A DNA stretch of 64,000 nt from Candidatus Aminicenantes bacterium UBA6072. GTDB taxonomy: Bacteria > Acidobacteriota > Aminicenantia > UBA2199. The notes under the pieces are model-generated. The model did not search any database. It was not told where the DNA came from and worked only from the letters and a program-made list of their open reading frames with translations. This document shows positions 46,865 to 64,000 of the stretch, piece by piece (within the stretch, counting starts at the first letter, position 1; every line of letters starts with the position of its first letter). The DNA is taken from the NCBI GenBank assembly GCA_002436105.1, contig DIXU01000008.1:145979-209978 (forward strand). The letters run 5' to 3'. Position numbers and translations under genes: made by a program.

Positions 46865-47240
46865 TAGTCTTCGGTTCTTCCTTCTTGACTCCCAGGATCT
46901 CGGCGATCGCCTTGTCGAAGCCGCGGCGGTCCATGGCGCCGCGGGCCATCTGCGGCGGGCCGGAAACGGGGATGAACAGCAGGCTGGGGATGCTCTGGAT
47001 GCCGAAGGCGCCGGCCAGCTCCTGTTCCTTGTCGGTGTCGACCTTGTAAACGGCCAGCTGGCCGTCATAATCGGCGGAGATCTTCTCCAGGATCGGGGTC
47101 ACCATCTTGCACGGCCCGCACCAGTCGGCGTAAAAGTCGATGATGGCCGGCAGCGTGCCGCGGTATTTCCACTCCTTCTCGTTCTCGTAGTCGAATACCT
47201 TCTCGATGAACGCTTGCTTGTCCAGTTTTTCCATGTTCAT
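46860..47240 (-). CDS. trxA: thioredoxin
   Basis: WCGPC active site. Confidence 0.85.
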   Translation of the reverse strand: MNMEKLDKQAFIEKVFDYENEKEWKYRGTLPAIIDFYADWCGPCKMVTPILEKISADYDGQLAVYKVDTDKEQELAGAFGIQSIPSLLFIPVSGPPQMARGAMDRRGFDKAIAEILGVKKEEPKTT

Positions 47241-47644: not shown

Positions 47645-47690
47645 ATCAACATATTAACATTTGTTTTTTTGTTTGTCAACTTTTTTGCCT

Positions 47691-47806
47691 GTAGACGAGT
47701 AGACGGGTTGATGGGTAGAAGGGTTAACGGCACTGGCAACGAGTTCTTGCGAGCGCCTCATCCCTCTGACTCTTCAACCCCTGAACTCTTCTACCCTTCT
47801 ACGTCT
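47691..47806. repeat. inverted arrays of GTAGANGG-like octamer repeats around rluA 3' end
   Basis: gtagacga gtagacgg gttgatgg gtagaagg gttaacgg at 47691-47730, and reverse-complement units (tagaaggg, tagaagag) at 47785-47806. Confidence 0.55.
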
Positions 47807-48684: not shown

Positions 48685-48731
48685 GGCGGAATTGTAGAAC
48701 CCGGGCTTGGGTCTGTCAAACAAAAAATCAA

Positions 48732-48849
48732 AACTCGGTGTACGGTCCACGGTTGACGGCAAGAGAAGAGTTGCGAAATTCATATTGCATCGCCGCAATA
48801 CTTCTTCTTGACCGTACACCGTATACCGTCCACCGTGAACCGAGTTCGG
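48732..48849. repeat. about 118-bp imperfect palindrome built from inverted CGGTNNN / ACCGNNN heptamer arrays
   Basis: Left arm cggtgta cggtcca cggttga. Right arm accgtac accgtat accgtcc accgtga accg. Central ttgcg...cgcaa inner inverted repeat. Confidence 0.65.
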
Positions 48850-48870
48850 AGAGCAGAAAAAACGAATTCC

Positions 48871-48899
48871 TTGACAATCGAGGTCATATAATTTATAAA
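48871..48899 (+). promoter_or_regulatory. sigma70-like promoter TTGACA-17-TATAAA for acs
   Basis: Hexamers at 48871-48876 and 48894-48899. A leader of about 50 nt with GGAGGG RBS before ATG 48953. Confidence 0.5.
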
Positions 48900-48952
48900 A
48901 TCGTTTTGCCGGGAACACGCATCTCAACGCAAATCAATGCCTGGAGGGCTGT

Positions 48953-50656
<1,704 letters not shown>

Positions 50657-50660
50657 GCCA

Positions 50661-50712
50661 GCGCTCCCTCAGCGAGGGAACACCGCCAGTCGCCTTGCTT
50701 TCGTTTTTCCGT
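50661..50712 (+). terminator. weak intrinsic terminator after acs
   Basis: CTCCCTC-agc-GAGGGA hairpin followed by a T-rich stretch, where GC content drops. Confidence 0.35.
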
Positions 50713-50815
50713 TTTCAACGAGGACCTTCCATTCAACAATTATTCAGAAAAGAGTAGAATTCATATGAAAGGCAGTACCGGGTGACCTGTAAAACGTTAC
50801 CGAGGAGAAGACAAG

Positions 50816-51724
50816 ATGCCCACTCTGCTTTGGACAGGCACGATATCCTTCCCTTTACGGCTCATGTTGAACATGGGGAACATCATTGCCTGGATAACGG
50901 GGAATGCCCGGGACTCTTCCGCGATGAAACGGAGAATGAAAGGCGGGTACAATGGCGAATACTCTGATTATGTGCGGCAATACGACAAGTCAGCGTCATT
51001 TCATTATGAAAAAATCTCCGACTCGCTCATGCAAAATATCGATTGCCGAGGGAAAAAGGTGGTCGATGTCGGATGCGGAACGGGTATCCTCTCCCTGAAT
51101 GCCCTGGAGAAAGGGGCGGCAAAATTGGATTGCGTTGACCTGTCCAGGTTCATGCTGGAAAAGTGCAGGGAAAAAATCATTGCCAAGGGGTATTCCGCCG
51201 AGCTCATTTCCTTCCATGAGGGCGATGCGGAGAGATTGCCATTCAATGATGCCACGTATGATGTCGTCTTATTCAACATGGTCTTGGGAATGATCCCGAA
51301 TCAGCAAGAAGCCATCATTGAGTTGGCGAGGATTCTTCGCCCTGGCGGTACCATCGCGCTATCAGCGCATGGTCCCGCTTATTATAGGGAAGCAATAGAA
51401 GCCGGGGTGAAAGCAATGAATTTGCGCTATTTTTTGGGTCATCGCTTTGAATATTGGCCGCGGGATGAAAACGGGATAAAAGCATTTTTCAGGCTCGCGG
51501 GCCTGGATGACACACAGACATCGCGAATGACATGGGTGGATGAATTTGAGAACGGCGGCAAGGCGTTTGATTTTTTTGCCTCGTCGACCGGGCTGTGGTG
51601 GCATCATCGCTTGCCCCCGGAGATCAGAAACAAGGAAACAGAAAAAACACGCGCGTATTTCCAGCGTAGGCATGTCACTGAAATCACCAGTGATGTGGTT
51701 TTCGCGTTTGCGTCAAAAAAGTAA
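50816..51724 (+). CDS. class I SAM-dependent methyltransferase (low-GC gene)
   Basis: VVDVGCGTGILS motif I, ILRPGG post-II motif. About 48% GC versus 65% in flanks. Confidence 0.7.
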   Translation: MPTLLWTGTISFPLRLMLNMGNIIAWITGNARDSSAMKRRMKGGYNGEYSDYVRQYDKSASFHYEKISDSLMQNIDCRGKKVVDVGCGTGILSLNALEKGAAKLDCVDLSRFMLEKCREKIIAKGYSAELISFHEGDAERLPFNDATYDVVLFNMVLGMIPNQQEAIIELARILRPGGTIALSAHGPAYYREAIEAGVKAMNLRYFLGHRFEYWPRDENGIKAFFRLAGLDDTQTSRMTWVDEFENGGKAFDFFASSTGLWWHHRLPPEIRNKETEKTRAYFQRRHVTEITSDVVFAFASKK

Positions 51725-51843
51725 AGGCACGCAATAAAGCGAATGCAGCCGGCACTGAAAGCCGCGCGATCGAGCAGCGGCGTCAAGAAAAGAGTGAAGA
51801 TAATGAATCTGAAGGTACCAGAAATCACCAATTCCGAAAAAAG

Positions 51844-52512
51844 CTAATCCAGCAGATCCTCGATCCTTCTGGCCGCGGCGAAGAGGTCGGGCTCGACCCA
51901 GTCGGCTTCGGAAAAGTCCTGGCCGCGGGTGTAGTCGTTGGGCACGGCAATGACCCGGCAGCCGGCGGCCTTGCCGGCCAGCACGCCGTTGCGCGCATCC
52001 TCGAGCACGACGCATTTCCCCGGCGCCAGCCCCAGGCGGCCGCAGGCGATGCGGTAGATTTCCGGATCGGGCTTGCCCCGATCCAGGCCGTCGGCCGTCT
52101 GCAGCACGGCGAAATACTTCCGGAGGCGCAGCGTGTCGAGGGCGATATCGAGGAATTCCCGCTGGGCGCCGGTGGCCACGGCCAGCTTGAGGCGGCCGTG
52201 AAAGGCGTTCAGGATCTCGTACAACCCGGGCATGGCGCCCAGGTCACGGCCCATCTTCTCCAGCATCAGCCGGTTGCGCCACTCGAGCAGTTCCTCGGGA
52301 GAGGTCTCGATCCCCAGGATCCCGCGCAGCAGGCGCAGCGACTCGATGGGCTTGCGCCCCATCAGCGGCCAGAGCTGCTCGTCGCGGATCTCCCTGCCGA
52401 AGTGGGCGGCCATCTCGCGCTCGGCGGCGAAATAGAGGCGCTCGGAATCGATCATCAGCCCGTCCATGTCGAAGATCAGGGCCTGCGGGATCAAGTGCGA
52501 TAGCTGCGGCAT
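51844..52512 (-). CDS. HAD-family hydrolase (beta-phosphoglucomutase-like phosphatase)
   Basis: IFDMDGLMIDSE motif I, GKPDPEIY, and a terminal D motif. High GC. Confidence 0.75.
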   Translation of the reverse strand: MPQLSHLIPQALIFDMDGLMIDSERLYFAAEREMAAHFGREIRDEQLWPLMGRKPIESLRLLRGILGIETSPEELLEWRNRLMLEKMGRDLGAMPGLYEILNAFHGRLKLAVATGAQREFLDIALDTLRLRKYFAVLQTADGLDRGKPDPEIYRIACGRLGLAPGKCVVLEDARNGVLAGKAAGCRVIAVPNDYTRGQDFSEADWVEPDLFAAARRIEDLLD

Positions 52513-52770
52513 CCGCCATTATACACGATCTCCTTCCCAGCGCAGCATATCTTGTTGTTTGTCCTTCAAGAAGTGTTTTGAGGTATCCTCATCGAGGAAA
52601 ATCCCGATTACGCCCTGGTGGCCTCGCGCAATTTCCTGCCGGTGCGCATCGAGCGCTCGGTCAATGAGAATCTTTGCAAGGGAAAATTTGCTCCGCTTAC
52701 AAAGGTAGTTTTATCAAAGCCAATAGAGGATGAAAACCGTTTTTAGAATTCATGGTTGACCGGCGGGGAA

Positions 52771-54669
52771 TCAGTCGTTGATCACCTGGATGGCAGGGTA
52801 AATTTTCCAACCTCTGCCTTTGGTAAAAGAAAAATGATTCATCTCGCAATGAGGCAAATTGATGGCATAGCCATTTTGTTGCTTATAGCCTTCATAAATA
52901 TGGATTTCCCGATGGATCGGGAATGAATCTTCGAGGATGGGAAAACCATTCTCGGTCATGGCGGGCAGGCAGGATTGCGAGAAAATGGTGGCTGCAATAT
53001 CTGCGGTTTGCGTTTCCCTCTGGGAAATCGTGAGCTGTGATGCGGAACGATGAGCCGGTTTGATCAGCAATAATGCCTGGCTCCATTTATCCATTTGCCT
53101 GGCATCAAAATCAGGGCGTTTGATCAGGGCATCGATTTCACTCATCGTCTCCGCAGATTCGGGGGTTTTCAGGGAAAACAGATTATCTTCTTTGTATGCG
53201 AAGCCATGGTCGGAATGGATCATTATGGTCGCATTATCGTAACGATCAAGGCGCTTCAACTCGGAAACGAATTGATCGATCAAGTTGAAACAGGCTTGAA
53301 CCTGGTCGTTGCGGGTCGTTCCTTCCGGGTGATAGACGAGTTTGCCGTCCAAAACATATGGATTATGTGGAAGATAAATATGCGCCTCGACATAATGTCC
53401 TTGGTGCCCGCGCAATTCTTCCTCAGCAAGCATTGTCCGAAATATGTTCAAGGCGGTACCGACCCGCAAGTGCGTATTGGAAAAATCGCCTTTCTTGCCA
53501 AAATTTCGGCTCAGTAAGCCCCGACCTTGGTCATAAACCTCTTTTCGTAATGGAACCGGTGCCAGTCTCAGCAGGCAGAGATCTGCGAAATTCAGGCGGT
53601 GCAGAATCTGATTATGCGCATGATGCTGGATTCTGTCAGCAACCGCGAAGGACACCTTTCTGAATGCAGGCTCATTTCTTTTAAAACTCGCATTCCCATA
53701 AAGGGAAGTCAGCCAACCGTTTTCCAGCATTCGTTCGGAAATGGTTGGAATGGCTGCATTCAAAATCCACTCCCGCATATTCCCACCTTTAAAAAATGAG
53801 CCGGTTTTGCAGCATGTCACCGATGGCTGAGTCCATAAATAGTTTGCTCTATTTTTCGGATAAAAAATGAAGTCTTTTAAGGTTCTTTGGTGCTTGCTTT
53901 TTGGATAGCATGTTTGAAATTCTTGTGAACCGAAACTGTCAAAAAGCAGCCGGTAGATGTTGCCGCCGGTAATGGTCGCTTGGGGAATGGGATAAGTGAT
54001 TTTTTTGGTTGGATCGGCATAACCATGGTCTGAATGACTTCCCTTGACATCCAATTTCACCAGCAGCAGGATGAGTATCAAAATGGCTATTGTTCCGCCC
54101 ATCGCTCGCAGCAATTTCCGCGGCAAACGAATGAAAGCGAATAGCAGCAGCAAAAATATCAAGCACTGCAGCAAAGTCGCAGCCACAGGTTCAAGCGGTG
54201 TCCATTTGTCCTCCATCCCGCTCGGGGATGACATGCGCAACGGGAAAAGGATTTGCGACAGGTAGACAAACAGCCCAATGAAAAAGAACAACCGGCTCAG
54301 TCGTGAGCGCCACAATGGAGAAAACGTGAACGAAAGAAATAAAAGAACCCCCATGCTTGCGCCGGCGGCAATCAAAAAGGAGTGCAATACATCGCTGGGG
54401 AATTCATTCAGGTTACCCAGGAACAATTCCACCGGAATGGAAATGAATAAAATGGTGGGCAGGAAGCTGGCCAGTGCCATATCACTGAGCCGGTCAATCA
54501 GCAAACTCTTGTGATTTTTCACAAGCCCCCCCTGTGCCATCCGCCAACATTTTATATAATTTTTTCTTTCCGTCAATATAGTTTCAATTGCCGATGGGGT
54601 GCCGATACTGCATGACAATAAATGGTTCTCTTTCCCCATATTTCCGCAAGTTGGGCTTGAAATTTCCAT
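52771..54669 (-). CDS. membrane-anchored LtaS/EptA/sulfatase-like transferase, low-GC paralog of 29949..31805
   Basis: Multi-TM N-terminus then a sulfatase-fold domain (HSDHGF). True start may be an internal Met (MAQGGL or MALASF). Confidence 0.6.
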   Translation of the reverse strand: MEISSPTCGNMGKENHLLSCSIGTPSAIETILTERKNYIKCWRMAQGGLVKNHKSLLIDRLSDMALASFLPTILFISIPVELFLGNLNEFPSDVLHSFLIAAGASMGVLLFLSFTFSPLWRSRLSRLFFFIGLFVYLSQILFPLRMSSPSGMEDKWTPLEPVAATLLQCLIFLLLLFAFIRLPRKLLRAMGGTIAILILILLLVKLDVKGSHSDHGYADPTKKITYPIPQATITGGNIYRLLFDSFGSQEFQTCYPKSKHQRTLKDFIFYPKNRANYLWTQPSVTCCKTGSFFKGGNMREWILNAAIPTISERMLENGWLTSLYGNASFKRNEPAFRKVSFAVADRIQHHAHNQILHRLNFADLCLLRLAPVPLRKEVYDQGRGLLSRNFGKKGDFSNTHLRVGTALNIFRTMLAEEELRGHQGHYVEAHIYLPHNPYVLDGKLVYHPEGTTRNDQVQACFNLIDQFVSELKRLDRYDNATIMIHSDHGFAYKEDNLFSLKTPESAETMSEIDALIKRPDFDARQMDKWSQALLLIKPAHRSASQLTISQRETQTADIAATIFSQSCLPAMTENGFPILEDSFPIHREIHIYEGYKQQNGYAINLPHCEMNHFSFTKGRGWKIYPAIQVIND

Positions 54670-54747
54670 GCTCCTTCGAGACTGAATCCACGCTGCGCGA
54701 GCATAAGGTTATGGCCGGGCGGCTGTGGCGGGCAATCCCGGCCCAAC

Positions 54748-54950
54748 GAACATGGAGGCGGTCAAGGCTTCATCTCCCTAACGCCCGGCTTCCATGCCTC
54801 CAAGATGCTCGAACTGGACATGATGGACTTTTCCGCCAGACGCTCTTGTCGCTGGCCTTTCTCCGAGAAATCAAATTCATGCCCGGGCTGCCCAAAAACA
54901 CCCGGGCAGGGTCACGGGCCGCGTACGGGTCACCTGATCGTGGGGCAAGT
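54748..54950 (+). pseudogene. degenerate copy of the acs 3' end (frameshifted, premature stop)
   Basis: About 70% nt identity to 50416-50620. Translation PGFHASKMLELDMMDF...PGCPKT versus acs PGFQASKMLELDIMNF...PGLPKT, broken by indels. Confidence 0.7.
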
Positions 54951-55056
54951 AGACCACCGGCATTTACACCCTGGAAAACGGCTGCAGCTCCCGCTATCGC
55001 CCGCCGCATCGGGATCCGCGATCGTTGCGGATCGAGAAATCTTGCCGACCGCTCCC

Positions 55057-57819
55057 CTACTTCTCCGGCGGAACAGCCAGGGAGCGGTAAATTCCGGAAT
55101 CGACGAAAGCACGATGGAAGCTTTCGCCGCTCAGTTCGCGTACCGTCGGCAGCCGGCGCAGGTAATCGTGGGTGCGGAGGATCAGGTCCCGGTCCATCAG
55201 CTTGGCCGCCGCCTCGGGCAGGGATTGAAAATAAAAAGGGTACTCTGCCCCCAGGTATTCCACCACCGACTCCAGGGGATTGATCAGCAGCGGCGTGTAG
55301 CGCACCATGCATTCGACGATGGCATTGCAGGCGGACGAGTCGTACAGGAACATGAAGACGACGTTCCGGCTCAGCAGCCAGTCATATTCCTGGTTGGACA
55401 GGCAGGGGATGGTCACGACGGAGGAGAGATCCACGTGGACGAAAGTGCCCTCGCGGACCAACATCTCCTTTTCTTTGGCCATCAGCGCGGGGAGGCTGGG
55501 ATGGCCGACGTCCAGAAAGACTTTTTTGAAGTCGGTTTTGGGCAGCTGGTGGATCGCGTGCAGCCGCCGCAGCCACCACCCCACCTGGACGATCATTTTA
55601 TCCGCGTTGGCGGCGAACGCCTCCGGGGACCATTTCAAATCGGGCGTCTCGCTGGGCAAGCGCAGCGTCTCCACCGGGATCTTCAGCATCTCCATCAGAT
55701 GCCTCTGGTGATACCGGGAAAAGGCGAAAAGCCCGCGGCACCAGGGCAGGCTTTTCCGCCAGGATTCCGAGGCGAAGATGGCCGGGTTGCTCTGTTCGGG
55801 ATGGAACCACTCGGGCAGGCGCGGCGGGACATGGATGAAGCCGATCCAGGGCGTTTCGTGGCCCTGATTGCCCTGGGGCAGCCAGGAAAAGGTCCTCTCG
55901 ATGAACGCGTCGAGCTCGACGCCCCGGGGATGGTGCAGCCCCAGCAGGAAGCGCAGCCCGTATTTCAATCCGCTGCGATGAAGCCCGAAATCCAGGCGCA
56001 GCTGGTCGGCCAAAGCGATCTTCCTCTCCCCGGCGGGAGGCATGGCGGCCAGGCTGGCGATCTCGCTTTCGGGCAGCCTTCGTTCCGCCTGCCGCGCTTT
56101 CAGGCTTTGCAGGAACTTCTTCCCCATGCGCAACGGCAGCAGCAGGAACCGGCCCAGGCGGAACGAATGGCTGTTCCGGAGGATGGCCACGTTGTTCCGC
56201 AGCAGGGAGATCTCCGCGGTTTTTTCCCTCAGCGCTCCGTTCAACTCCCCGATCGTCCGCTCATTCTCCTGCAGGTCATTCTTCAGCCGCCCGATCGACA
56301 ATTCCCTCTCTGCCAGCACACCCGTCAGTGCTTGGCTTTTCTCGCCTACTCGATCCAACTCGCCGGATAAGTGCGCGATCTCCATTTCCCTTCCCTGCAG
56401 TGCGGCCTTCAAGGCATCGATCTTCCGATTTTTCTCGATCCCGTCACTTTGCAGCCGCCAGAGCGATGCGTTTTCCTCGGTCAGCGTGCCGCTGAGCGTT
56501 TCGATCTTCCGGTCCCTCTCCTTCAGGTCGCCTTGCAGTCGCCCGATCGTCCCTTCCCTTTCGGCCAGCGCGCCCTTCAGCTCCTCGATCTCCCTTCTTC
56601 TCTCCCCCACCTCCGTGGCTCCCCGGGCAAGCGAATCGGAGAATCGCGAAACCTGCTCATTCCTGACCTTCAGCTCCGCGACCAGGCCGTCGATCGTCTC
56701 CACTTTCTTTCGCCAGCCGTCCAGCAACCGGTCCGTCATTCTCTCCGCGAGTCTTATCCAATCGCCATTCCTTCCGTCCTCCAGGATATTCCTGGATCTG
56801 ACCGGCTTCACCGCTTCCGCGGCCCGCAGCCGGGTGGCGATCCCGGCCGGAAGCCGCCTGGCGGCCTCCCGGGAAAGCACATGCGGCTGGTTGCCGGCGA
56901 TCAAGCCCTGCACTTGGTCCTCGATCGCCGCCATGGCCTCCGGCGGCAGGGGAAAGGCCGAATAGCGCGTGATATGGCAGTCGCTGAAATCCAGGGAGCC
57001 GGCTTTTTTACCGCCGAGCCAGCGCTGGACCCCGGCGCGGTAGGCGTGGTCAGCGGACAGGGCATTGATGTCCCAGAGCATGTCCGCATGCGTGGCGTTC
57101 TCGAGCAGTGCCAGCAGCCAAAGGTAATAGAAGATGAAGTACTTCTCTTTTTCTTCGTACGCCTGGCTCAGGACCCGGTAGAACGATTCTTCATCGGCAT
57201 AGTCGGAGGAATCGAATTTCAGCAACGGCAGCGCATCCCATAAGGGGCGGATAAGGTCATGTTCACGGTTTTTGCTCATGGCGATGATATCCATCAGGAA
57301 GAACGCGTCATAGCCTGTCCGCTCGCGAAGGGCCGCGTACGACTGCCATTGATCCCTCGGGTCGCGGTGGAGATAGATGTTCAATGAACGGGGATAGGCG
57401 GCCTTGAACCAGGCGCTGCGCAGCGCCGTGCGGTTGAACTGGAACAGCGGTACGCGGGGGCCGCTGGCCTGGATCAGAAAGTCGATATATTTTTTCTGTT
57501 CGGAATCGGCCTCGCTGCCCGCCTGGCAGAACCAGTCGAAGCTCAGTTCCTTCCTGAAAAAAGGCACGCCGGGGATTCCGGGCCTCAGTAGGGTTTCGTA
57601 TTCGTACAGATAGTGCCGGTCGAGCTCCGGGTGTCCCGCCGCCTTGAAATTGCGGGTCAGGACATCCTGGACGTTGTCCACGGTCACGCCCCCGAGAAGC
57701 TGATGGAACGGCTCGTAATAACAGACGTAGCCCGGAAGCTGGCGGAACTTGTTCCAGACATAGGTGCTGCCGGTGCGGAACAGGGCATGGATGAAAATCG
57801 GGCGCGCTTTCATGTTCAC
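55057..57819 (-). CDS. sulfotransferase-like P-loop domain + repetitive coiled-coil spacer + C-terminal domain (920 aa)
   Basis: N-terminal IFIHALFRTGSTYVW (5'-PSB-like P-loop). Residues about 395-560 form heptad-rich degenerate about 28-aa repeats. RBS-less, possibly leaderless. Confidence 0.6.
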   Translation of the reverse strand: MNMKARPIFIHALFRTGSTYVWNKFRQLPGYVCYYEPFHQLLGGVTVDNVQDVLTRNFKAAGHPELDRHYLYEYETLLRPGIPGVPFFRKELSFDWFCQAGSEADSEQKKYIDFLIQASGPRVPLFQFNRTALRSAWFKAAYPRSLNIYLHRDPRDQWQSYAALRERTGYDAFFLMDIIAMSKNREHDLIRPLWDALPLLKFDSSDYADEESFYRVLSQAYEEKEKYFIFYYLWLLALLENATHADMLWDINALSADHAYRAGVQRWLGGKKAGSLDFSDCHITRYSAFPLPPEAMAAIEDQVQGLIAGNQPHVLSREAARRLPAGIATRLRAAEAVKPVRSRNILEDGRNGDWIRLAERMTDRLLDGWRKKVETIDGLVAELKVRNEQVSRFSDSLARGATEVGERRREIEELKGALAEREGTIGRLQGDLKERDRKIETLSGTLTEENASLWRLQSDGIEKNRKIDALKAALQGREMEIAHLSGELDRVGEKSQALTGVLAERELSIGRLKNDLQENERTIGELNGALREKTAEISLLRNNVAILRNSHSFRLGRFLLLPLRMGKKFLQSLKARQAERRLPESEIASLAAMPPAGERKIALADQLRLDFGLHRSGLKYGLRFLLGLHHPRGVELDAFIERTFSWLPQGNQGHETPWIGFIHVPPRLPEWFHPEQSNPAIFASESWRKSLPWCRGLFAFSRYHQRHLMEMLKIPVETLRLPSETPDLKWSPEAFAANADKMIVQVGWWLRRLHAIHQLPKTDFKKVFLDVGHPSLPALMAKEKEMLVREGTFVHVDLSSVVTIPCLSNQEYDWLLSRNVVFMFLYDSSACNAIVECMVRYTPLLINPLESVVEYLGAEYPFYFQSLPEAAAKLMDRDLILRTHDYLRRLPTVRELSGESFHRAFVDSGIYRSLAVPPEK
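56142..56637. repeat. degenerate tandem coding repeats (about 84 nt unit) specifying the coiled-coil spacer
   Basis: Repeated units visible on the plus strand (…cagccgcccgatcg…ccttcaag/ctgcag…) and as a repeated SxSxxPxSxSI pattern in the shadow frame. Confidence 0.55.
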
Positions 57820-57899
57820 CTCAATTCATCGCTGCGGCCGGGATACTGAGCGTTCGTCAACATTCCGACCTCCCCTGCCATCCAGTATATCACAAGCGT

Positions 57900-59330
57900 T
57901 CATTCGCCGACGATGATTTCAACCCGATGCGGATGCCCGTCGGCGTCGGGGTCGAGTACCCGGTTGACGCGCACGAAAACGAGAGAATGAGAGCCCTGCT
58001 CGACACGATGGACATTCCGCACCCGCGCTTCCCCGGCGGCTGCAAATTTCAGCCGGTCCCCGGCCCTGACCGGCAGGGACGCATCCCTGGCGACATCCAG
58101 CAAGAACAGGTTCTTTCTTTCCCGGTGGATGCCGTTCGACCACTTGCCGTTCGTAAATCGGCTGATTGGATGCGACCGGGGCAATTCAGCGCGCCGCGCT
58201 CCATTGCCATGGTTGCAATACGCCTGCGCCAGCTTCCGCGAGAATTCTCCGGCGCGGGACATCTTAAGATGGAAATAATCCGGGATGTCGTCATCGGCAT
58301 ACGAGAAATCGGTTGTCAGCAGCGCAACGCCCCATTTTTTGAACTGTTCCCTTATTATGGCTTTATTCCTCTCATGGTTCGGCGTCGCGTAGGCCTTGAG
58401 TTCCATGGAATAAGCCGGCAGGTTTACGAAAAACACCTCCCCGCCCTGCCTCTTGATCAAGCGGACGATATCCGCCAGCACGCTGCCGTCCCAGCGGTTG
58501 AGAATCGGCCGGCGACTCGCTGCCAGCGATTGATAGTATCGCCGCGCGCTTTTCTTGGCCCTCTCCATGGTTTTCGCGTCGGTCATGATCCCGCCGATCG
58601 CCTGGATCACGGGCCTTGGCTCGGGCGGGAGCGGAGGCAGGCGCAACAGCAGGTTCGCTACCCGGTAGAGCATTTTTTGCCCCTGCGCCTCGAATTCATG
58701 CCTGACCCGTTCCCGATTGCTGACGATTTTTGAGCTTCCCAGCAGGAATTTCGCCGTCACCAGGAATTTGTCCGTCCATGCGGTTCCCTTGGAGCGCCAG
58801 AAGGGCAAGAGGTCGGGGAAGCGCAGCAGAGGCACGAGAAGCTCCGGCTGGCGGTTGAACCATATGGACTTCCAATTGCCGTGATATTGATAAAGAGGGG
58901 CATCCGACATGGCTTCAGCGAACAAGGTCACGCCTTTCAGGGATTCCGGGTATCTGCGCAGCAGGTTGCGCAGCCCAAGGTAATGAAGCTGGGGCGAGGA
59001 GAAGCCCCTGCCCAGGTTGACGGAGACGATCCTTCGCTGCCGAACCTTCGCCATCTCCACGCTGAAAGCCTTCTCGATGAAGGCGGCCGCCACCTTGGAC
59101 GAACCGACAAAGGCAAAATCGATCCTGCCCCGCCTGGCGATCGCTTCGGCGCGGGCATACCACAGGGGAGCCGCCACATCGCTCTTTCGCAGCAAATATT
59201 CAACGGCGACCAGGATCAGGAGTGGGATGACCACCCACTGGGAACGGACGAGCAGCCTTCGTAATACCGGTTTTCCGGCCTTGGAAACTGGAGAAGACGG
59301 CGGCACCATCGAGTCCTCAGAACCGGGCAT
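57900..59330 (-). CDS. membrane-anchored hypothetical protein, likely MBOAT partner (DltD/AlgJ-like role)
   Basis: N-terminal TM then a large extracytoplasmic domain. 14-nt overlap with the MBOAT gene. Confidence 0.5.
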   Translation of the reverse strand: MPGSEDSMVPPSSPVSKAGKPVLRRLLVRSQWVVIPLLILVAVEYLLRKSDVAAPLWYARAEAIARRGRIDFAFVGSSKVAAAFIEKAFSVEMAKVRQRRIVSVNLGRGFSSPQLHYLGLRNLLRRYPESLKGVTLFAEAMSDAPLYQYHGNWKSIWFNRQPELLVPLLRFPDLLPFWRSKGTAWTDKFLVTAKFLLGSSKIVSNRERVRHEFEAQGQKMLYRVANLLLRLPPLPPEPRPVIQAIGGIMTDAKTMERAKKSARRYYQSLAASRRPILNRWDGSVLADIVRLIKRQGGEVFFVNLPAYSMELKAYATPNHERNKAIIREQFKKWGVALLTTDFSYADDDIPDYFHLKMSRAGEFSRKLAQAYCNHGNGARRAELPRSHPISRFTNGKWSNGIHRERKNLFLLDVARDASLPVRAGDRLKFAAAGEARVRNVHRVEQGSHSLVFVRVNRVLDPDADGHPHRVEIIVGE

Positions 59331-60762
59331 AGATGAAATCCTGGGAGGCAGGCGCGAAAAAAACGATCAGCAGCAGGATCAAGGCCGTGACCAGGGCGGG
59401 ACCCAGCCCGTATCTCCAGCCCGGAATGCTCCGGGGGTCATCGCGGCTGCAGCCCAGTGATTCAAGCCCCCAGAGGATGAAGCAGTAAAAAAGAGGCATG
59501 AAAAGCATTTTGATATCGGCGGCGGCCGGCGGGAAATCGACGAAGATCCGGCGCAGGAAATCCCAGGCCTGGCCCAGGCTATGCGCCCGGAAGATGAGCC
59601 ACCCCAAGGCGGTCAGGTGAAAAAAAACGAATGCTTTCGCCAGCCGCAGAAACCCGGATCGGCTGCGCCTCTTTTTTCTGCGCCGGACCAAAAGATGATG
59701 CAAGGCAATGAGGATGCCGTGGTAGCCGCCCCAGACGACGAAGGTCCAGGCGGCGCCGTGCCAAAGGCCGGCGAGGAGCATGGTGCCGGTGATGCCGATC
59801 ACGTATCCCCAGTCTTCGACTTTCAGCTTCAGGGCCGGTTTTTCAACATGCCGCATCACGGCGTAGGCGATGGGCAGGAATAAATAATCCCTGAGCCAGG
59901 TGGAGAGCGTGATGTGCCAGCGTTGCCAGAATTCCACCGGGTTTGCGGCCAGGTAGGGGCGGTCGAAATTCAACGGGGTTTCGAATCCCAGGAGCTTGCC
60001 GATGCCGCGGGCAATATCCGAGTAGCCGCTGAAATCGCAGTAGATCTGGAAGGAGAATGCATAGGTCGCCAGGAGAACATGGAATCCGGAAACGGAGCCG
60101 CCGCCATCGAACACGTCATGCACGACGAGCGCGAGGTTGTCGGCCACGACCGCTTTCTTGAAGAGGCCCCAAAGGATCAACCAGGAACCCTGGATCATCT
60201 TGTCCCTTGACAGGGACCGGGGAGCATGCAATTGGGGGAGAAAGTGGGCGGCGCGCTCGATGGGACCGGCCAGGAGCTGCGGAAAGAAGGAAACGTAAAG
60301 GGCGTAATCGAAAAAATTGCCGGTGGGTTCCAGCTGCCCGCGATAGACGTCGATGGTGTAGGTCAGGGTCTTGAAGGTATAGAAGGACAATGCCGCGGGC
60401 ACGATGATGTGCAGCGCCGGTTCGGGCAGCCCGAGGCCCAGCATTCGCGAAAATCCAACGAGGCTGGATATGAAGAACCCCAGGTACTTGAAGAGGAACA
60501 GGATCCCCAGGTTGACGGCCAGGCTGATCCCCAGGTAGCGCCGCTTCTTGGCCATGCCGTCGGCGAGGTGGATCTTCCGCGCCACCAGGAAGTCCACCGC
60601 GGTGGAGAAAAGGATCAGGAACAGGAAGCGCGGGTCCAGCGCACCGTAGAACGCATAGCTGGCGGCCAGCAGCAGGCGGTTTTGCTTTTTTTGTGAAAAA
60701 AAACTATGGAGCACGAGGACAAGGCCTATGAAGAGAAAGAACTGCGCAGAGTGAAAGGACAA
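59317..60762 (-). CDS. MBOAT-family membrane O-acyltransferase (AlgI/DltB-like)
   Basis: Polytopic. Conserved FWQRWHITLSTWLRDY with catalytic His, and LWHGAAWTF. Confidence 0.8.
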   Translation of the reverse strand: MSFHSAQFFLFIGLVLVLHSFFSQKKQNRLLLAASYAFYGALDPRFLFLILFSTAVDFLVARKIHLADGMAKKRRYLGISLAVNLGILFLFKYLGFFISSLVGFSRMLGLGLPEPALHIIVPAALSFYTFKTLTYTIDVYRGQLEPTGNFFDYALYVSFFPQLLAGPIERAAHFLPQLHAPRSLSRDKMIQGSWLILWGLFKKAVVADNLALVVHDVFDGGGSVSGFHVLLATYAFSFQIYCDFSGYSDIARGIGKLLGFETPLNFDRPYLAANPVEFWQRWHITLSTWLRDYLFLPIAYAVMRHVEKPALKLKVEDWGYVIGITGTMLLAGLWHGAAWTFVVWGGYHGILIALHHLLVRRRKKRRSRSGFLRLAKAFVFFHLTALGWLIFRAHSLGQAWDFLRRIFVDFPPAAADIKMLFMPLFYCFILWGLESLGCSRDDPRSIPGWRYGLGPALVTALILLLIVFFAPASQDFIYARF

Positions 60763-61623
60763 CTATTTCCTCAATATCACTTCGAGGACACCGGTGGAAT
60801 AATTGCCGATCGCAGCGGATTGTCCGGGCAGGGAAATTCCGGAGAGCGGCCGAGATGCCATGTCTTTAATCGCGGCCAGTTTGCGTAAAACGCCTCTGGG
60901 CGGATTCCCCCATGAAGTTTCCCTCAGCTTTTCGATGGTGAGTTTTGCTTCCCTCAGGATACGGACAATGGTTTCAACCGGGTAGCGGTTCAGCATGGGG
61001 TTGTCGTAGATCCAGTCTGCGATCTTCTGGGCATGAACCTGGGGGATGCCCTCTGTCTCCAGGTAGCGCCTCATTTCGTCCTTATTGTAAATCAAATGAT
61101 ACCAATCGGGGATGGGATTGTTGGCATTGAATTCATACTTGACACCGTCGGCTTGCACCCAGACATGATGCCCAAGGCGGCAAGACCACAACGGCCCCCC
61201 GTGCAAATAGGCCCGGCCGCCTCTTGTCAGCACCCGGCATATTTCCGCTAAAACCTTATCCAGGTCATGCAGGTGCTCCAGGACGGCAATGCCGAAAACG
61301 ATGTCGAACTCCTCCCCGGGAAATTTCAAATCGCGAGCGTCCATATTGGAATAATCGATATCCGTATCGATTGGCTTGCTGGCGATATCCGTCCGATTGT
61401 TGATAACGCATATTTTTCTTGCGCCCCGTGTGCGCAATTCTCTGGCGACGCTATAAGGCGGACTTCCTCCGATTTCCAGCACCTTCTTCCCTGTGAACGG
61501 GTATCTGGCATTAAAATAATCAATGGATTGTTTTTGATATTTCTGCAATTCAAAGCCGCTGTTTTTCATGATCTGTCGGGCAAGGCCGGCGACGGCGAAG
61601 TACAGATCGGACATGGGCCACAA
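60763..61623 (-). CDS. class I SAM-dependent methyltransferase
   Basis: VLEIGGSPPYS motif I, DIVFGIAVLEH motif, RGGRAYL. Confidence 0.7.
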   Translation of the reverse strand: MWPMSDLYFAVAGLARQIMKNSGFELQKYQKQSIDYFNARYPFTGKKVLEIGGSPPYSVARELRTRGARKICVINNRTDIASKPIDTDIDYSNMDARDLKFPGEEFDIVFGIAVLEHLHDLDKVLAEICRVLTRGGRAYLHGGPLWSCRLGHHVWVQADGVKYEFNANNPIPDWYHLIYNKDEMRRYLETEGIPQVHAQKIADWIYDNPMLNRYPVETIVRILREAKLTIEKLRETSWGNPPRGVLRKLAAIKDMASRPLSGISLPGQSAAIGNYSTGVLEVILRK

Positions 61624-61674
61624 AAGGATGGTCGTACGGGGCTCAAGGATGTGCCGCCTGGCTCTCGAATCCGC

Positions 61675-64000
61675 TCACTCCAACGCCGCGGCGCGGACCC
61701 ATTTTTTGCGTGCTTTTTCCCGCTCAGCCGGCGGATAGAAGTGCCGGGCATAGCGCGAAGAATAGATCCGGTCGAACAACTCTTCCGAAAGGGAAAATTT
61801 CCGCAGAACGGCCTGGTATTCATTCCAGTAAGACTTGCTCTTGGCGGTATTCACCTTGATCAACTCCAGATCCGGCAGGAGCAGAAAATCGGCCATGGCC
61901 GGACGGAAACTTCGCTCCAGGTCCTCCAGCCGGATCAGCACCACGCTGACGTTCCCCTTGTTGAGGATCGTATAACCGCGGGCGAAGTCATATGGAACTG
62001 AATAAATGTCGATCCCGAAAACCTGCTCCAACTCCACGTTGAACCAGGAGCTTGAGTAATCCCGCTTTTCATCAAATTCGTGGAACACCGTGTTCATCAG
62101 TGTCCTGACCACCTTGTCGATATTGATCTTCTGCGGTGAGTCAAAGACCTCATGACGGTATACGGCGATGTTTTCAAAAAACGAGGACAACTTCACGCTC
62201 ACCGGGTCCCGGGTCATGGTGATGATCTTCCAAGGCACCCGCGTCCGGTTGGCATCGATCCATGCCCTGAGATCCCTGCTGAATTGCAGATCCTCCGCTA
62301 TCCTGGGGAGCTGCAGGGAATCAAAATATTTCAGCCAATCCGTTTTTCGCTGGATCCCCTGTTCCGACAACTGATGGACATGGAAAATGGCATGGCGGCT
62401 GTCGGCCTGCTTCAATGTCCTGTAAACCGATGACGACCCCACCTTGCCCATCTGGTAGATCAGGAGAGGAGAAGGATCTCCAGCACGTCCGACTTGGGGG
62501 AAATCCTGGGAAGATCCGGCCCGGGAGTTCAACGCCGTTTCGACCATCCGCGGGTATCTGCGATCTGTTCGAATCAAGTCCGCGTTCGGGGCGTTATTCC
62601 CGCAGGCGGCCAAAAGCGGCGATGGCGGGGCAGCCTGACCGGCAACGGATCCCTTGACGGCAACGAGATGACCGGCCAGGCCGTATTTGGCCAATAGCCG
62701 GCGGGGATAATCGATGGGAGAGAGGGGGGGCAGGAATCGCTGCAGATCCCGGCGCCGGCGATAGAACTGGATAAAAACCAGGGGATCACGGAAAAGCCAG
62801 GGCAAACCGATCCCGATCCTTCGCAGCAGTGGCAGAGGCATCGGGGCGGAACGCTGCCGGGCTTCCCTGAGCGTCTCAACCAGCCTTTCTTTCCGATAGA
62901 GGCAGATCAGTTCGCTGAGGCGCAGCTTGCGTAGGAGTTTGGGCTCGATGCGGCGGGCGGCGCGGAAGGCATGACGCACCATCATGATCAGTTCGCGCTT
63001 CCGGCTGGCCGCGTCCAGTTTGCTGATGTCGGTATTCTGCCGCTCATGGACTCTCCAGGCAGCCAGTGTGCGGGGCACATGGACGGTGTCGGCCAGCAAG
63101 GACGCTCGCATGCCCCATTCAAAATCGGCGGCCGGGCCGAATCGCGTCGAGAACAGGCCCACCCGCTCAAAAAGCCGCCTGCGGATCAACAATTGAGTCA
63201 TGGATGTATAAACAGTCCGCACGCCGCAATGCAGCACGCCGTCAAAAGGAGCGCGGCGGATGTGCGCATGATCGATCCAATCCTCAAAAAACCTCGTACT
63301 GAACAGGCGATCCCAGTTCAGGCGCGAACTTGGATCCCCATTTTCGTCAATGATGCGCAGTTTGCAATGGGCCAGGTCGCAGTCCGGGTTCTCGTCCAGC
63401 GCCCGAACCATATGCTCGAGGAAGTCAAGCTCCATGGTGTCATCGCTGGGCGCGATCAGCACGTATTCCCCCCTGGCCAGTCCGATGCAGCGGTTCCAGT
63501 TCACGTAAATGCCCCGCTGCGGCGTCTGGAAGATGCGAATGCGCGGATCCTTGGCGGCCCATTCCCGGAAGAATTCCCAGGCGCCGTCCGTGGATTGGCT
63601 GTCCACCACCACCAGCTCCCAATCGCCGAACGTCTGCCCCTGGATCGACCGCATCCGCTCGTCCAGGAAGGGCCTGTGATTCAGGTTGGGAAGCAGAATG
63701 GAAACTCGCGGCGCCGGCAGGGGCGCATCCGGGGCGTCATTGCCGGCGGACAATGTTCTCAGCCTTGCCAGCAGATCCTGCTCCGCCGCCAGGGATGCGG
63801 GAATGGGTGGCGGTGCCATCCCCCCATGAAACTCCCCGGCGGCCCGGCCCAGGTCATCCAGACCGGCAAATTCAAACAGCCCGGCCCCGTTGAACTCATG
63901 GTAGGAACGGGCGGCATGGGCGTTGGCCAAAACCGGCACTCCGGCCAGCAGCATTTCCCTGATCTTCGTCAAGGCGCCCGAGCCGGATTCCTGGAAACAG
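61675..64000 (-). CDS. multidomain glycosyltransferase: GT4-like C-terminus (runs off window) + GT2 + sulfotransferase-like domain
   Basis: Continuous frame to the window end. Encodes ESGSGALTKIREMLLAGVPVLA (GT1/GT4 C-terminal motif), VSILLPNLNHRPF...DSQSTDG (GT2, DxD), then LLIYQMGKVGSSSVYRTL (P-loop). Confidence 0.6.
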   Translation of the reverse strand, partial: CFQESGSGALTKIREMLLAGVPVLANAHAARSYHEFNGAGLFEFAGLDDLGRAAGEFHGGMAPPPIPASLAAEQDLLARLRTLSAGNDAPDAPLPAPRVSILLPNLNHRPFLDERMRSIQGQTFGDWELVVVDSQSTDGAWEFFREWAAKDPRIRIFQTPQRGIYVNWNRCIGLARGEYVLIAPSDDTMELDFLEHMVRALDENPDCDLAHCKLRIIDENGDPSSRLNWDRLFSTRFFEDWIDHAHIRRAPFDGVLHCGVRTVYTSMTQLLIRRRLFERVGLFSTRFGPAADFEWGMRASLLADTVHVPRTLAAWRVHERQNTDISKLDAASRKRELIMMVRHAFRAARRIEPKLLRKLRLSELICLYRKERLVETLREARQRSAPMPLPLLRRIGIGLPWLFRDPLVFIQFYRRRRDLQRFLPPLSPIDYPRRLLAKYGLAGHLVAVKGSVAGQAAPPSPLLAACGNNAPNADLIRTDRRYPRMVETALNSRAGSSQDFPQVGRAGDPSPLLIYQMGKVGSSSVYRTLKQADSRHAIFHVHQLSEQGIQRKTDWLKYFDSLQLPRIAEDLQFSRDLRAWIDANRTRVPWKIITMTRDPVSVKLSSFFENIAVYRHEVFDSPQKINIDKVVRTLMNTVFHEFDEKRDYSSSWFNVELEQVFGIDIYSVPYDFARGYTILNKGNVSVVLIRLEDLERSFRPAMADFLLLPDLELIKVNTAKSKSYWNEYQAVLRKFSLSEELFDRIYSSRYARHFYPPAEREKARKKWVRAAALE

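Follow-up and report, generated by a model that had tools for sequence, protein, structure and literature searches.

A locus of an Aminicenantes bacterium predicted to assemble and decorate a sulfated, methylated and O-acylated glycan

Pathways for sulfated glycans are already known in bacteria but they are rare and poorly understood. Sulfated glycolipids have named precedents in the mycobacterial Stf0 sulfolipid and the rhizobial NodH/LpsS systems. The xss (synechan) cluster of Synechocystis PCC 6803 has been genetically linked to a sulfated exopolysaccharide and places several glycosyltransferases beside PAPS-type sulfotransferases of the Pfam families PF00685, PF13469 and PF03567 (PMC8205485). 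In the non-cyanobacterial anaerobe Pontiella sulfatireligans F21 a putative sulfated glycosaminoglycan cluster contains GT2, GT4, methyltransferase and PF13469 sulfotransferase genes, and sulfated exopolymers were detected chemically (PMC7356697). A further point of comparison is offered by the coiled-coil terminators of ABC-transporter-dependent O-antigens, namely WbdD of E. coli O9a and Klebsiella O3, WbbB of O12 and ORF6 of O7 (PMC11231755, PMC3482155).

Here we describe a locus of the uncultured Candidatus Aminicenantes bacterium UBA6072 at positions 55057-64000 of the window, the whole 64,000-nucleotide stretch of DNA that was analysed. ORF calling resolved this region into five close-packed minus-strand ORFs, in agreement with the original prediction of five consecutive genes with gaps of at most about 80 nt. 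From low to high coordinate, the first two ORFs lie 80 nt apart, the next pair overlaps by 14 nt, the third pair abuts (0 nt) and the last is separated by 51 nt. The gene at high coordinate passes the window end with 774 of its 1060 codons inside the window, and directly upstream on the same contig, outside the window, lies the gene for a 969-aa canonical Sulfotransfer_3 (/_1) protein. We consider it likely that the region represents the 3' two-thirds of an operon with at least six genes whose products assemble and decorate a sulfated, methylated and O-acylated glycan. The locus is not an assembly artefact as the JGI contig 3300002498 TOLCLC_10000119 showed no mismatch to the window (0 of 18,944 bases) and four independent assemblies yielded the identical gene set; the full 1060-aa product is encoded on the source contig and in four assemblies, and the 918-aa product P0001 is identical on 8 contigs.

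Like xss, the Aminicenantes locus combines glycosyltransferases with sulfotransferase domains, here predicted to be of the PAPS type; unlike xss, it has these domains fused to glycosyltransferase or coiled-coil modules, two of the three lie outside the Pfam sulfotransferase families, and they are accompanied by an MBOAT pair and a methyltransferase, in a different phylum and an anaerobic habitat. The xss cluster pairs two sulfotransferases with Wzx/Wzy, PCP and the XssQRS regulators; in the reachable flanks of the Aminicenantes locus no Wzx/Wzy, PCP or regulator genes were seen. The Pontiella F21 cluster is alike in holding glycosyltransferase, methyltransferase and sulfotransferase genes, however its single sulfotransferase is a standalone protein and it has no NKWYS domain, sulfotransferase-coiled coil protein or MBOAT pair.

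The gene at 55057-57819 (minus strand) encodes a 920-aa protein, or 918 aa counted from the ATG at 57813. A domain map derived from BLAST comparison with 49 homologues gives the order sulfotransferase (residues 1-335), coiled coil (~363-550) and a C-terminal domain, here called X (588-920). The N-terminal domain (56815..57819, minus strand) scored 23.7 bits against Sulfotransfer_3 (E=6.7e-5), missing the gathering cut-off of 27, with its homologues equally weak (18.9-26.5 bits), and a profile search of PDB sequences gave no match to it. Its assignment as a divergent sulfotransferase domain comes from this weak match, the predicted fold and a motif set of the form RxGST...E / RxPx5S. Residues 8-22 of the ORF (IFIHALFRTGSTYVW) had been proposed to fit the 5'-PSB of carbohydrate sulfotransferases, and they do form a strand-loop-helix P-loop in the AF2 model (pLDDT 91.8), with FRTGST between strand 8-12 and helix 18-26. 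The predicted 5'-PSB reads F-R15-T-G-S18-T, with E36 at +21 followed by H39, and R15, T16 and S18 are invariant across 38 homologues. The predicted 3'-PB, R152-D-P154-R-D-Q-W-Q-S160, falls between strand 146-151 and helix 154-168, with R152, P154 and S160 invariant in the same set. The FRTGST pattern equates to the PRSGTT pattern of the neighbouring bona fide Sulfotransfer_3 domain, and the spacing from R to E (+21) and from R to S (+8) is the same in both.

The second P-loop domain belongs to the fusion gene at 61675-64000 (minus strand; ORF 61675-63972, with the frame open to base 64000). Its product is organised as a GT-B-like module, a GT2 module and an NKWYS domain, and the original description of a GT4-like/GT2/P-loop fusion stood for the GT2 and P-loop parts and fell short for the 'GT4-like' part, to which no profile corresponded. 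The GT-B-like module makes up the N-terminal ~380 aa, with the last ~95 aa inside the window (63712..64000, minus strand), and matched no Pfam model at E <= 1. A sister-species paralogue shares 41% identity with it and itself matches Glyco_transf_4 (PF13439) weakly, which gives a faint hint of a GT4-like identity. The GT2 module (GT-A fold; 63034..63711, minus strand) matched Glycos_transf_2 with 81.2 bits (cut-off 23.3, E=1e-22), and among PDB sequences it matches GT2 enzymes such as 3bcv, GalT1 and chondroitin synthase (best E=1e-14).

The NKWYS domain (PF10364; 61678..62526, minus strand) scored 85 bits (cut-off 25.1, E=6e-24), and PF10364 is present in 57 of its 61 homologues. We found no mention of NKWYS in the literature searched, where the string 'PF10364' occurred only in an unrelated clinical paper. 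The proposed P-loop motif LLIYQMGKVGSSSVYRTL, which lies at residue 512 in the in-window fragment of 774 aa, fits a 5'-PSB as predicted: in fragment numbering the domain carries QMGKVGSS (K28), H49-x-H51 and a 3'-PB of the form R106-D-P-x5-S114. Across 59 homologues G27, K28, V29 and S31 of the 5'-PSB and R106 of the 3'-PB are invariant, and P108 and S114 are found in at least 90%. A profile of the domain places RDPxxRxxS on the 3'-PB of heparan sulfate 3-O-sulfotransferases (3-OST-5/3A1). On its motifs and modelled fold we read NKWYS as a putative PAPS-type sulfotransferase domain. Both P-loop domains share the predicted alpha/beta fold of HS 3-OST-5, NDST1, TPST1/2, StaL and Stf0/Stf1/Stf9, along with the strand-loop-helix 5'-PSB, the R...S 3'-PB and an acidic or His residue after strand 2, and both would be divergent and previously unstudied kinds of sulfotransferase domain.

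The remaining genes encode candidate tailoring enzymes. The 286-aa protein encoded at 60763-61623 (minus strand) is a predicted class I SAM-dependent methyltransferase, as originally proposed, with Methyltransf_11 at 48.2 bits (cut-off 21.2, E=1.8e-12) and Methyltransf_25 and _23 also above cut-off; no NCBIfam equivalog was reached. The 481-aa protein encoded at 59317-60762 (minus strand) scored 59.7 bits against MBOAT (cut-off 27, E=4e-16), has several TM segments by hydropathy and includes, in FWQRWHITLSTWLRDY, the conserved His of the W-H motif, all of which bears out its prediction as an MBOAT membrane O-acyltransferase, of the AlgI/DltB/PatA type. Assignment as a DltB equivalog for D-alanylation was rejected (TIGR04091, 185 bits vs a cut-off of 375), and unlike Dlt systems the operon contained no AMP-binding or carrier-protein genes (DltA/DltC).

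The gene for the 476-aa protein (57900-59330, minus strand) overlaps the MBOAT gene. Its product begins with a TM helix near the N terminus (aa 25-49), continues with a putative SGNH-like domain (~aa 60-375) and ends in an additional beta domain of ~90 aa (57903-58190, minus strand). It gave no Pfam, NCBIfam or PDB sequence match and belongs to a family (383 representatives) that no profile model covers. Within this family G76, S78 and D351 never vary and H354 is kept in at least 90% of members, giving a GSS...DxxH pattern; Lipase_GDSL_2, ALGX or DltD were matched weakly by just one or two of 53 members. The arrangement recalls AlgI/AlgJ/AlgX, PatA/PatB and DltB/DltD, where an MBOAT protein is adjacent to a membrane-anchored extracytoplasmic SGNH-type protein with Ser...Asp-x-x-His, and hints that the 476-aa protein could be the MBOAT partner. 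It differs from AlgX, DltD and GDSL proteins in lacking a significant model match and in its extra domain, which matches a tandem-repeat lipoprotein encoded upstream of sulfotransferase genes in relatives and by this similarity appears to derive from it.

A supply of PAPS is suggested by the homologues of the 920-aa N-terminal domain. Four of these (P0045, P0046, P0048 and P0049) carry the domain in one protein with APS kinase (PF01583), the loci with such adenylyl-sulfate kinase fusions being L025, L026, L028 and L034 (P0045-49), and in two further loci (L017, L019) a separate cysC-like APS-kinase gene lies less than 5 kb away. This link to PAPS supply holds for the family and not for the UBA6072 genome itself; neither the annotated part of the window (~3.5-64 kb) nor the 3.8 kb past its end showed sat, cysDN, cysC or cysQ. 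In another Aminicenantes genome sat and cysC have been reported (PMC4897734).

The domain identities, folds, motifs and conserved co-occurrence were shown by the analysis, and the donors of sulfate, methyl and acyl groups, the acceptor, the order of the steps and the cell location belong to a pathway that we infer. In the cytoplasm the two glycosyltransferase modules of the 1060-aa fusion (GT-B-like and GT2), possibly with X domains, would build a glycan on a lipid carrier. Three sulfotransferase-fold domains, the Sulfotransfer_3 domain of the 969-aa protein, NKWYS of the fusion and the N-terminal domain of the 920-aa protein, would then move sulfate from PAPS to the glycan and the class I methyltransferase would methylate it from SAM. 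After export the MBOAT protein would pass an acyl group (most probably acetyl) across the membrane, and its putative single-pass SGNH-like partner would place this group on the glycan in the periplasm. The sulfated, O-acylated and O-methylated glycan of the original prediction is supported by sulfotransferase folds, 3'-PB motifs, PAPS-linked homologues and the Pfam matches of the MBOAT protein and methyltransferase. The 'surface' location, the carrier lipid and the export route are assumed, since the reachable flanks in this organism and its sister species (views of ~+/-10 kb each) revealed no initiating phosphoglycosyl transferase, Wzx/Wzy or Wzm/Wzt, nor any PCP/OPX or ABC exporter genes. 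Views of the same size around three comparable loci (L041, L043 and L044) also showed no flippase, polymerase or PCP genes.

The same lack of export and initiation genes favours a product other than a surface polysaccharide, with genuine sulfotransferases acting on a glycolipid, a glycan attached to protein or a small secreted glycoside. Such a product would also accord with the PMT_2 (GT-C) genes of one related cluster (L044), which could glycosylate proteins or lipids, with an NKWYS homologue that adjoins lipid A acyltransferase-like genes in another (L042), and with the LPS genes found elsewhere in the window. Against this stand the equivalent cluster of the sister species, with at least seven sulfotransferase genes and at least five glycosyltransferases, the coiled-coil spacer, which is characteristic of polymer assembly, the combination of MBOAT and periplasmic SGNH-like partner, which is typical of polymer O-acylation, and the lipoprotein domain tied to the locus. 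We regard a non-polysaccharide product as unlikely. An ABC ATPase lay within 10 kb in only 3 of ~30 related loci (L014, L017 and L028).

Sulfotransferases and nucleotide kinases have a common fold. The two P-loop domains might on this basis be kinases or other nucleotide-dependent transferases, and the locus would then make a phosphorylated glycan in place of a sulfated one, with a WbdD-like kinase step. This would be in keeping with the use of kinases and methyltransferases by known coiled-coil terminators (PMC11231755), and the sulfotransferase structural matches are all distant, those of the 920-aa domain having E >= 2.6e-3 (2z6v best) and TM scores of 0.24-0.47 (0.41/0.47 for 1nst). The ranking of the matches nevertheless answers the question of fold that the original prediction had raised in favour of sulfotransferases: all PDB entries at Foldseek ranks 1-33 for the 920-aa domain are sulfotransferases (Stf9, TPST, NDST1, Stf1 and others) with the first kinase at rank 34, and the overall fold of NKWYS is also closest to solved sulfotransferases, shikimate and adenylate kinases coming lower in the lists of both domains. 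A Walker A motif, GxxxxGK[ST], is absent from both domains, and the 3'-PB that had likewise been called for is present in both as R-x-P-x5-S on a strand-loop-helix. The kinase reading is quite improbable.

As had been noted, the locus adjoins a low-GC segment. A 632-aa ORF at 52771-54669 (minus strand), 387 nt downstream of the 920-aa gene, has a GC content of 46.7% (GC3 52.8%) against 62.3% for the window. The protein (583-632 aa) has ~5 TM helices by hydropathy and an alkaline-phosphatase-superfamily domain with the motif SDHG, with weak Sulfatase and Phosphodiest matches (E ~1e-3, below cut-off), and its gene, which may be an accessory gene of the locus, is missing at the equivalent position in the sister species. 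The sister-species cluster contains four further Sulfotransfer_3 genes, a Sulfotransfer_2 gene, GT2 and GT4 genes and an epimerase; there a gene each encodes the GT-B-like module (390 aa) and the GT2 module (594 aa), NKWYS is absent and the NKWYS/methyltransferase/MBOAT/partner cassette is missing at the equivalent position. In other relatives the associations recur: an unrelated genome (L041) has a row of 920-aa homologue, X, GT2, methyltransferase, NKWYS, methyltransferase and Sulfotransfer_1, and in two clusters (L043, L044) the sulfotransferase-coiled coil module is accompanied by GT4, by other sulfotransferases and by a sulfatase with a radical-SAM maturase. That the five genes are chance neighbours gathered by horizontal transfer with no common pathway, as the missing cassette and the mosaic GC might suggest (the methyltransferase gene at 51.9%, below its surroundings, and the NKWYS part of the fusion gene at 54%, beside the low-GC ORF), is very improbable given their single strand and tight spacing, the physical fusion of NKWYS to GT2, the renewed GT2/methyltransferase/NKWYS adjacency in L041, the MBOAT genes of six related clusters (L006, L010, L011, L017, L019 and L021) and the fact that mosaic GC is normal for polysaccharide loci.

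Within the favoured reading of a sulfated glycan operon, the architecture of the 920-aa protein may indicate how the glycan is finished. Residues ~363-550 (56170..56733, minus strand) match many coiled-coil families (SMC, Rad50, HOOK and others) and are followed by a basic amphipathic stretch, SHSFRLGRFLLLPLRMGKKF; by a crude composition heuristic 41 of 48 homologues have a coiled-coil-like segment of ~60-370 aa after the sulfotransferase domain. The X domain (~330 aa; 55060..56058, minus strand) is highly conserved (in alignment A3 the columns average 67% identity and many residues never vary) and shares 50% identity with the C-terminal domain of the 969-aa protein encoded upstream. It gave no Pfam or PDB sequence match and hhalign against GT4 was not significant; homologues of the 920-aa protein carry GT4 or GT2 modules where X stands, and standalone or duplicated copies of X adjoin GT2 in four loci (L006, L009, L011 and L012). 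WbdD and WbbB have the same order of N-terminal tailoring enzyme, extended coiled coil and C-terminal glycosyltransferase module or polymerase-recruiting region, as well as a basic amphipathic stretch after the coiled coil and a coiled-coil length that varies among homologues. By analogy this layout suggests that the 920-aa protein may act as part of a polymerase complex, as WbdD/WbbB do, although these have no sequence homology to it, none of the known terminators adds sulfate, and the Wzm/Wzt with carbohydrate-binding module of their systems was not found in the reachable flanks of the Aminicenantes locus.

A bolder possibility, which we put forward tentatively and hold to be rather doubtful, is that the 920-aa protein is a glycan chain terminator in which the coiled coil serves as a 'molecular ruler', the sulfotransferase caps the growing chain with sulfate and X is a new glycosyltransferase family or a polymerase dock. 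If so, sulfate would be added to the methyl, phosphomethyl and Kdo caps known for the WbdD/WbbB principle, and the RTGST family of the 920-aa protein together with NKWYS/PF10364 would represent two new families of bacterial carbohydrate sulfotransferases.

Five open reading frames (ORFs) follow one another on the minus strand of the locus, encoding the 920-aa protein (55057-57819), a 476-aa protein (57900-59330), a 481-aa MBOAT protein (59317-60762), a 286-aa methyltransferase (60763-61623) and a glycosyltransferase (GT) fusion (61675-63972). Their spacing in this order is 80 nt, a 14-nt overlap, 0 nt and 51 nt, in agreement with the original prediction of five closely packed genes separated by at most about 80 nt. 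The frame of the last ORF is open to base 64000 and the gene is therefore cut by the window edge. Read as the reverse complement, positions 45057-64000 are identical to part of JGI metagenome contig 3300002498 TOLCLC_10000119 (333,722 bp), with 0 mismatches in 18,944 bases; the whole window corresponds to about 123,419-187,418 of that contig in reversed orientation. The same gene set occurs in three Logan assemblies; the arrangement and the fusion are therefore not assembly artefacts. On the JGI contig the truncated gene encodes 1060 aa. Only 7 nt upstream of it lies the gene for a 969-aa protein with a strong Sulfotransfer_3 match (E=7e-30) as well as a Sulfotransfer_1 match (E=3e-10), so the operon comprises at least six genes and three sulfotransferase-type domains. 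A scan of 51500-58000 for promoters and terminators returned sites no more numerous than expected by chance. The nearest genome is that of Candidatus Aminicenantes bacterium UBA2190, with proteins 84-94% identical. Toluene/methanogenic enrichment cultures containing the organism are represented by SRR943309, SRR943314 and SRR5323176.

The MBOAT, methyltransferase and GT2 identities assigned from sequence hold, each scoring above its Pfam cut-off (MBOAT, 59.7 bits against 27; Methyltransf_11, 48.2 against 21.2; Glycos_transf_2, 81.2 against 23.3), and the C-terminal domain of the GT fusion matches NKWYS (PF10364) at 85 bits against 25.1. The MBOAT protein carries a FWQRWH...RDY motif and is DltB-like, yet it reaches 185 bits against a DltB equivalog cut-off of 375. 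As the operon also has neither DltA nor DltC, a role in DltB-type D-alanylation was rejected.

The 920-aa protein begins with a domain (aa 1-335) whose Sulfotransfer_3 match is sub-threshold (23.7 bits in Pfam), as it is in its homologues (18.9-26.5 bits), and searches of PDB sequences with the single sequence and with a profile gave nothing significant. Residues invariant among 38 aligned homologues include R15, T16 and S18 of the FRTGST loop, Y35, H63, R152, P154 and S160, with E36 and H39 kept in at least 90%. The spacing from Arg to a Glu at +21 and the R-x-P-x5-S pattern are common to this domain and the adjoining bona fide Sulfotransfer_3 domain of the 969-aa protein, in which the motifs read PRSGTT...PETHFF and RHPEAAILS. 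In the AlphaFold2 (AF2) model (pLDDT 91.8, pTM 0.92) both motifs sit on strand-loop-helix elements. A Foldseek comparison with the PDB placed sulfotransferases at all of ranks 1-33, among them Stf9, tick and human TPST, the olefin-synthase sulfotransferase domain, NDST1 and Stf1, with shikimate kinases appearing from rank 34; these matches are distant (E of 2.6e-3 or higher, TM 0.24-0.47). Walker A is absent from the domain, and a kinase reading of the P-loop domains was rejected on motif and fold. The proposal that the P-loop motif is the 5'-PSB of a sulfotransferase is thus borne out by the modelled fold and by an invariant 3'-PB (R152, P154, S160). We conclude that aa 1-335 are predicted to represent a divergent PAPS-type sulfotransferase family without a Pfam model of its own.

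Four homologues of this domain (P0045, P0046, P0048 and P0049) are fused to an adenylyl-sulfate (APS) kinase domain, which contains GLSGAGKTT, and one of the four, HXX19290.1, is named adenylyl-sulfate kinase by NCBI. Using tblastn the fusion was found in loci from Acidoferrum, Verrucomicrobiia and Terriglobia, and in two Spirochaetota loci a separate APS-kinase gene lies no more than 5 kb from the homologue. With an APS-kinase domain as query, tblastn gave no match in the window or the Aminicenantes loci, and the annotated stretch of the window (~3.5-64 kb) holds no PAPS-pathway genes; another Aminicenantes genome has been reported to carry sat, cysC and cysH (PMC4897734).

The NKWYS domain of the GT fusion occurs as a standalone protein of ~270-330 aa in 57 of 61 homologues. 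Invariant residues are G27, K28, V29, S31, H51, R106 and N226, with P108 and S114 near-invariant; they outline a GKxGS 5'-PSB, an R-D-P-x5-S 3'-PB and an H-x-H motif in place of the E-x-H of heparan sulfate 3-OSTs. The eight best PDB sequences retrieved with an NKWYS profile were all sulfotransferases aligned at the 3'-PB, at sub-threshold, non-significant E-values of 0.06-0.4, and the AF2 model has a pLDDT of 92.9. The second predicted 5'-PSB, in the GT fusion, was also upheld by a modelled sulfotransferase fold and a conserved R-D-P-x5-S 3'-PB. Our literature search returned no paper naming NKWYS, the string PF10364 matching one unrelated clinical paper only, and nothing on Aminicenantes together with sulfotransferase.

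The 476-aa protein had been put forward as the partner of the MBOAT enzyme. No Pfam or NCBIfam model matched it, and neither single-sequence nor profile searches of PDB sequences gave anything significant. An exhaustive HMMER search gave 383 representatives, mostly ~350 aa long and spanning query residues 25-375, in whose alignment G76, S78 and D351 are invariant and H354 near-invariant, a GSS...DxxH pattern resembling SGNH blocks I and V; the protein also has a single N-terminal TM helix. Lipase_GDSL_2, ALGX or DltD were matched weakly by just 1-2 of 53 family members. The pattern and the helix favour the assignment, and given the stray family matches and the lack of a PDB sequence match we regard a partner role as plausible but not proven. 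The last ~90 residues (57903-58190, minus strand) form an extra domain without a Pfam match, which in relatives is present in two tandem copies in a ~232-aa lipoprotein whose signal peptide ends in the lipobox ...AASGC or ...LIGC. In at least seven related loci (e.g. L038:9165-9863 and L041:3672-4373) the lipoprotein gene lies directly upstream of genes for 969-aa-type proteins or for sulfotransferase-coiled coil-X proteins, X denoting the C-terminal domain of the 920-aa protein; in the window this separate gene has apparently given way to a fusion with the partner.

Residues ~363-550 of the 920-aa protein match many coiled-coil families and are followed by a basic amphipathic stretch, SHSFRLGRFLLLPLRMGKKF. 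By a crude composition heuristic, 41 of 48 homologues have a coiled-coil-like segment of ~60-370 aa following the sulfotransferase domain. Conservation of the X domain (residues ~588-920) is very high, alignment columns averaging 67% identity, and the domain shares 50% identity with the C-terminus of the 969-aa protein; in related loci it also occurs as standalone genes, single or duplicated, adjoining a GT2. Genuine GT4 or GT2 modules occupy its place in homologues. As a lead only, its sequence resembles the C-terminal half of a GT-B enzyme (...LYDSSACNAIVECMVRYTPLLINP...EYLG). X itself matched no Pfam model, single-sequence and profile searches found no PDB sequence match, a Pfam scan of 22 X members gave one stray Glyco_trans_1_2 match, and hhalign against a small GT4 alignment was not significant (probability 0.2%); given these null results a GT-B identity is not established. 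The 920-aa protein, in which a tailoring enzyme is linked through a coiled coil to a domain in GT position, is like the chain terminators WbdD, WbbB and ORF6(O7), and by this analogy sulfate might cap the chain. We consider such a cap unlikely because no Wzm/Wzt exporter was seen near the window locus; only three related loci have an ABC ATPase within 10 kb.

The N-terminal ~250 aa of the 969-aa protein (L001:40-940, just past the window end; homologues P0205-P0234) have no Pfam match. This domain is found fused to Sulfotransfer_3, Sulfotransfer_2, GT4, methyltransferase, radical-SAM and TPR modules (76 proteins with a sulfotransferase, 22 with other partners, 20 with a sulfotransferase and X), and could represent a GT-A-like or acceptor-binding module that has so far gone unrecognised. 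One 1530-aa protein, P0120 (Logan contig of 10,333 bp), joins a coiled-coil-bearing ~890-aa N-terminal part (coiled-coil-type match at aa 438-502, plus a second, unplaced Sulfotransfer_3 stretch) to a complete 969-aa-type protein (Sulfotransfer_3 at aa 897-1111, X at aa 1216-1530). From this single-chain fusion, the 920-aa and 969-aa proteins may cooperate physically.

Gene order upstream of the 969-aa gene was taken from a sister species (loci L038-L040) as proxy. Its cluster runs Sulfotransfer_3, GDSL-like, Sulfotransfer_3, two unknowns, GT4, epimerase, unknown, Sulfotransfer_3, GT2 and lipoprotein, followed by a homologue of the 969-aa protein, a 390-aa GT-B-like protein, a 917-aa homologue, GT2-Methyltransf_24 and Sulfotransfer_2, after which come the HAD and methyltransferase genes that also flank the window cluster. 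Relative to the sister, the window organism has the 390-aa GT and GT2 fused with NKWYS and has gained the methyltransferase/MBOAT/partner cassette. The cassette and the downstream 632-aa ORF are lower in GC (47-54% versus 62%), and the predicted low-GC neighbour was recovered as this ORF (52771-54669, minus strand; 46.7% GC, GC3 52.8%). In its 583-632-aa product about five TM helices at the N-terminus are combined with a C-terminal domain of the alkaline-phosphatase superfamily (motif IMIHSDHG; Sulfatase and Phosphodiest matches sub-threshold), an arrangement that recalls periplasmic phospho-group transferases of the LtaS/EptA type. The sister lacks the gene at this position, and it may therefore be a recently acquired extra decoration gene. 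A 302-aa UbiE-like methyltransferase gene (50816-51724, plus strand) of clearly atypical composition (49.8% GC, GC3 59%) is kept at the same cluster flank in the sister.

An unrelated genome (L041) encodes in a row a 920-aa homologue, X, GT2, methyltransferase, NKWYS, methyltransferase, MT24, Sulfotransfer_1 and GT2. Two further loci, L043 and L044, have sulfotransferase-coiled coil-GT4 proteins with further GTs, sulfotransferases, a PF00884 sulfatase and a radical-SAM maturase. Here (L043:16166-20987, L044:13797-17295) the sulfatase, with SGSH_C, is followed by a radical-SAM/SPASM protein resembling anaerobic sulfatase-maturating enzyme and a Sulfotransfer_1 protein, the radical-SAM and Sulfotransfer_1 domains being fused in L043. 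The presence of a sulfatase among sulfation genes hints that the sulfation pattern is edited.

The rest of the annotated stretch of the window (~3.5-64 kb) holds housekeeping and LPS genes. At 29949-33331 a 618-aa protein of the PF00884 'Sulfatase' family, which probably transfers phospho-substituents to the LPS core instead of acting as a sulfatase, lies near a divergently oriented GT9 heptosyltransferase/HAD hydrolase pair with LptC/LptD-like genes nearby, a gene set that shows a diderm organism with LPS. A TetR regulator, outer-membrane factor (OEP), membrane-fusion protein, ABC ATPase and two ABC-2 permeases (36071-42718) have the appearance of a tripartite efflux system and not of a glycan exporter of the Wzm/Wzt type.

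Functional statements on the locus are predictions throughout. What the analysis shows is which domains are present, that both P-loop domains have sulfotransferase motifs and a modelled sulfotransferase fold, that clustering with GTs and other sulfotransferases is conserved, and that one sulfotransferase family is fused to APS kinase. The GT modules would assemble a glycan in the cytoplasm, the three sulfotransferase domains would sulfate it with PAPS, a SAM-dependent step would methylate it, and the MBOAT protein and a periplasmic partner would O-acylate it after export. Among described systems, the closest are the cyanobacterial xss/synechan cluster, with two sulfotransferases, eight GTs and Wzx/Wzy (PMC8205485), and a putative sulfated-GAG cluster of Pontiella (PMC7356697), which likewise combine a GT cluster with PAPS-type sulfotransferases. 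In contrast, the present locus belongs to a different phylum, its sulfotransferase domains differ in number and divergence and are fused to GT and coiled-coil modules, an MBOAT pair and a methyltransferase are added, and it is so far without recognisable export genes.

Sulfated polysaccharides have long been regarded as essentially eukaryotic and cyanobacterial (PMC8205485), and sulfated glycosaminoglycan-like polymers recur in anaerobic granules and sludge, their producer and enzymes not being known (PMC7356697). The locus and its relatives in Aminicenantes, Acidobacteriota, Spirochaetota and others provide concrete candidate genes for these polymers. Both an unmodelled sulfotransferase family repeatedly fused to APS kinase and the uncharacterised Pfam family NKWYS gain a testable function, and the sulfotransferase-coiled coil-GT layout suggests a way to couple sulfation to polymer length control. 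Such enzymes are of interest for the microbial production of heparin-like and other sulfated glycans.
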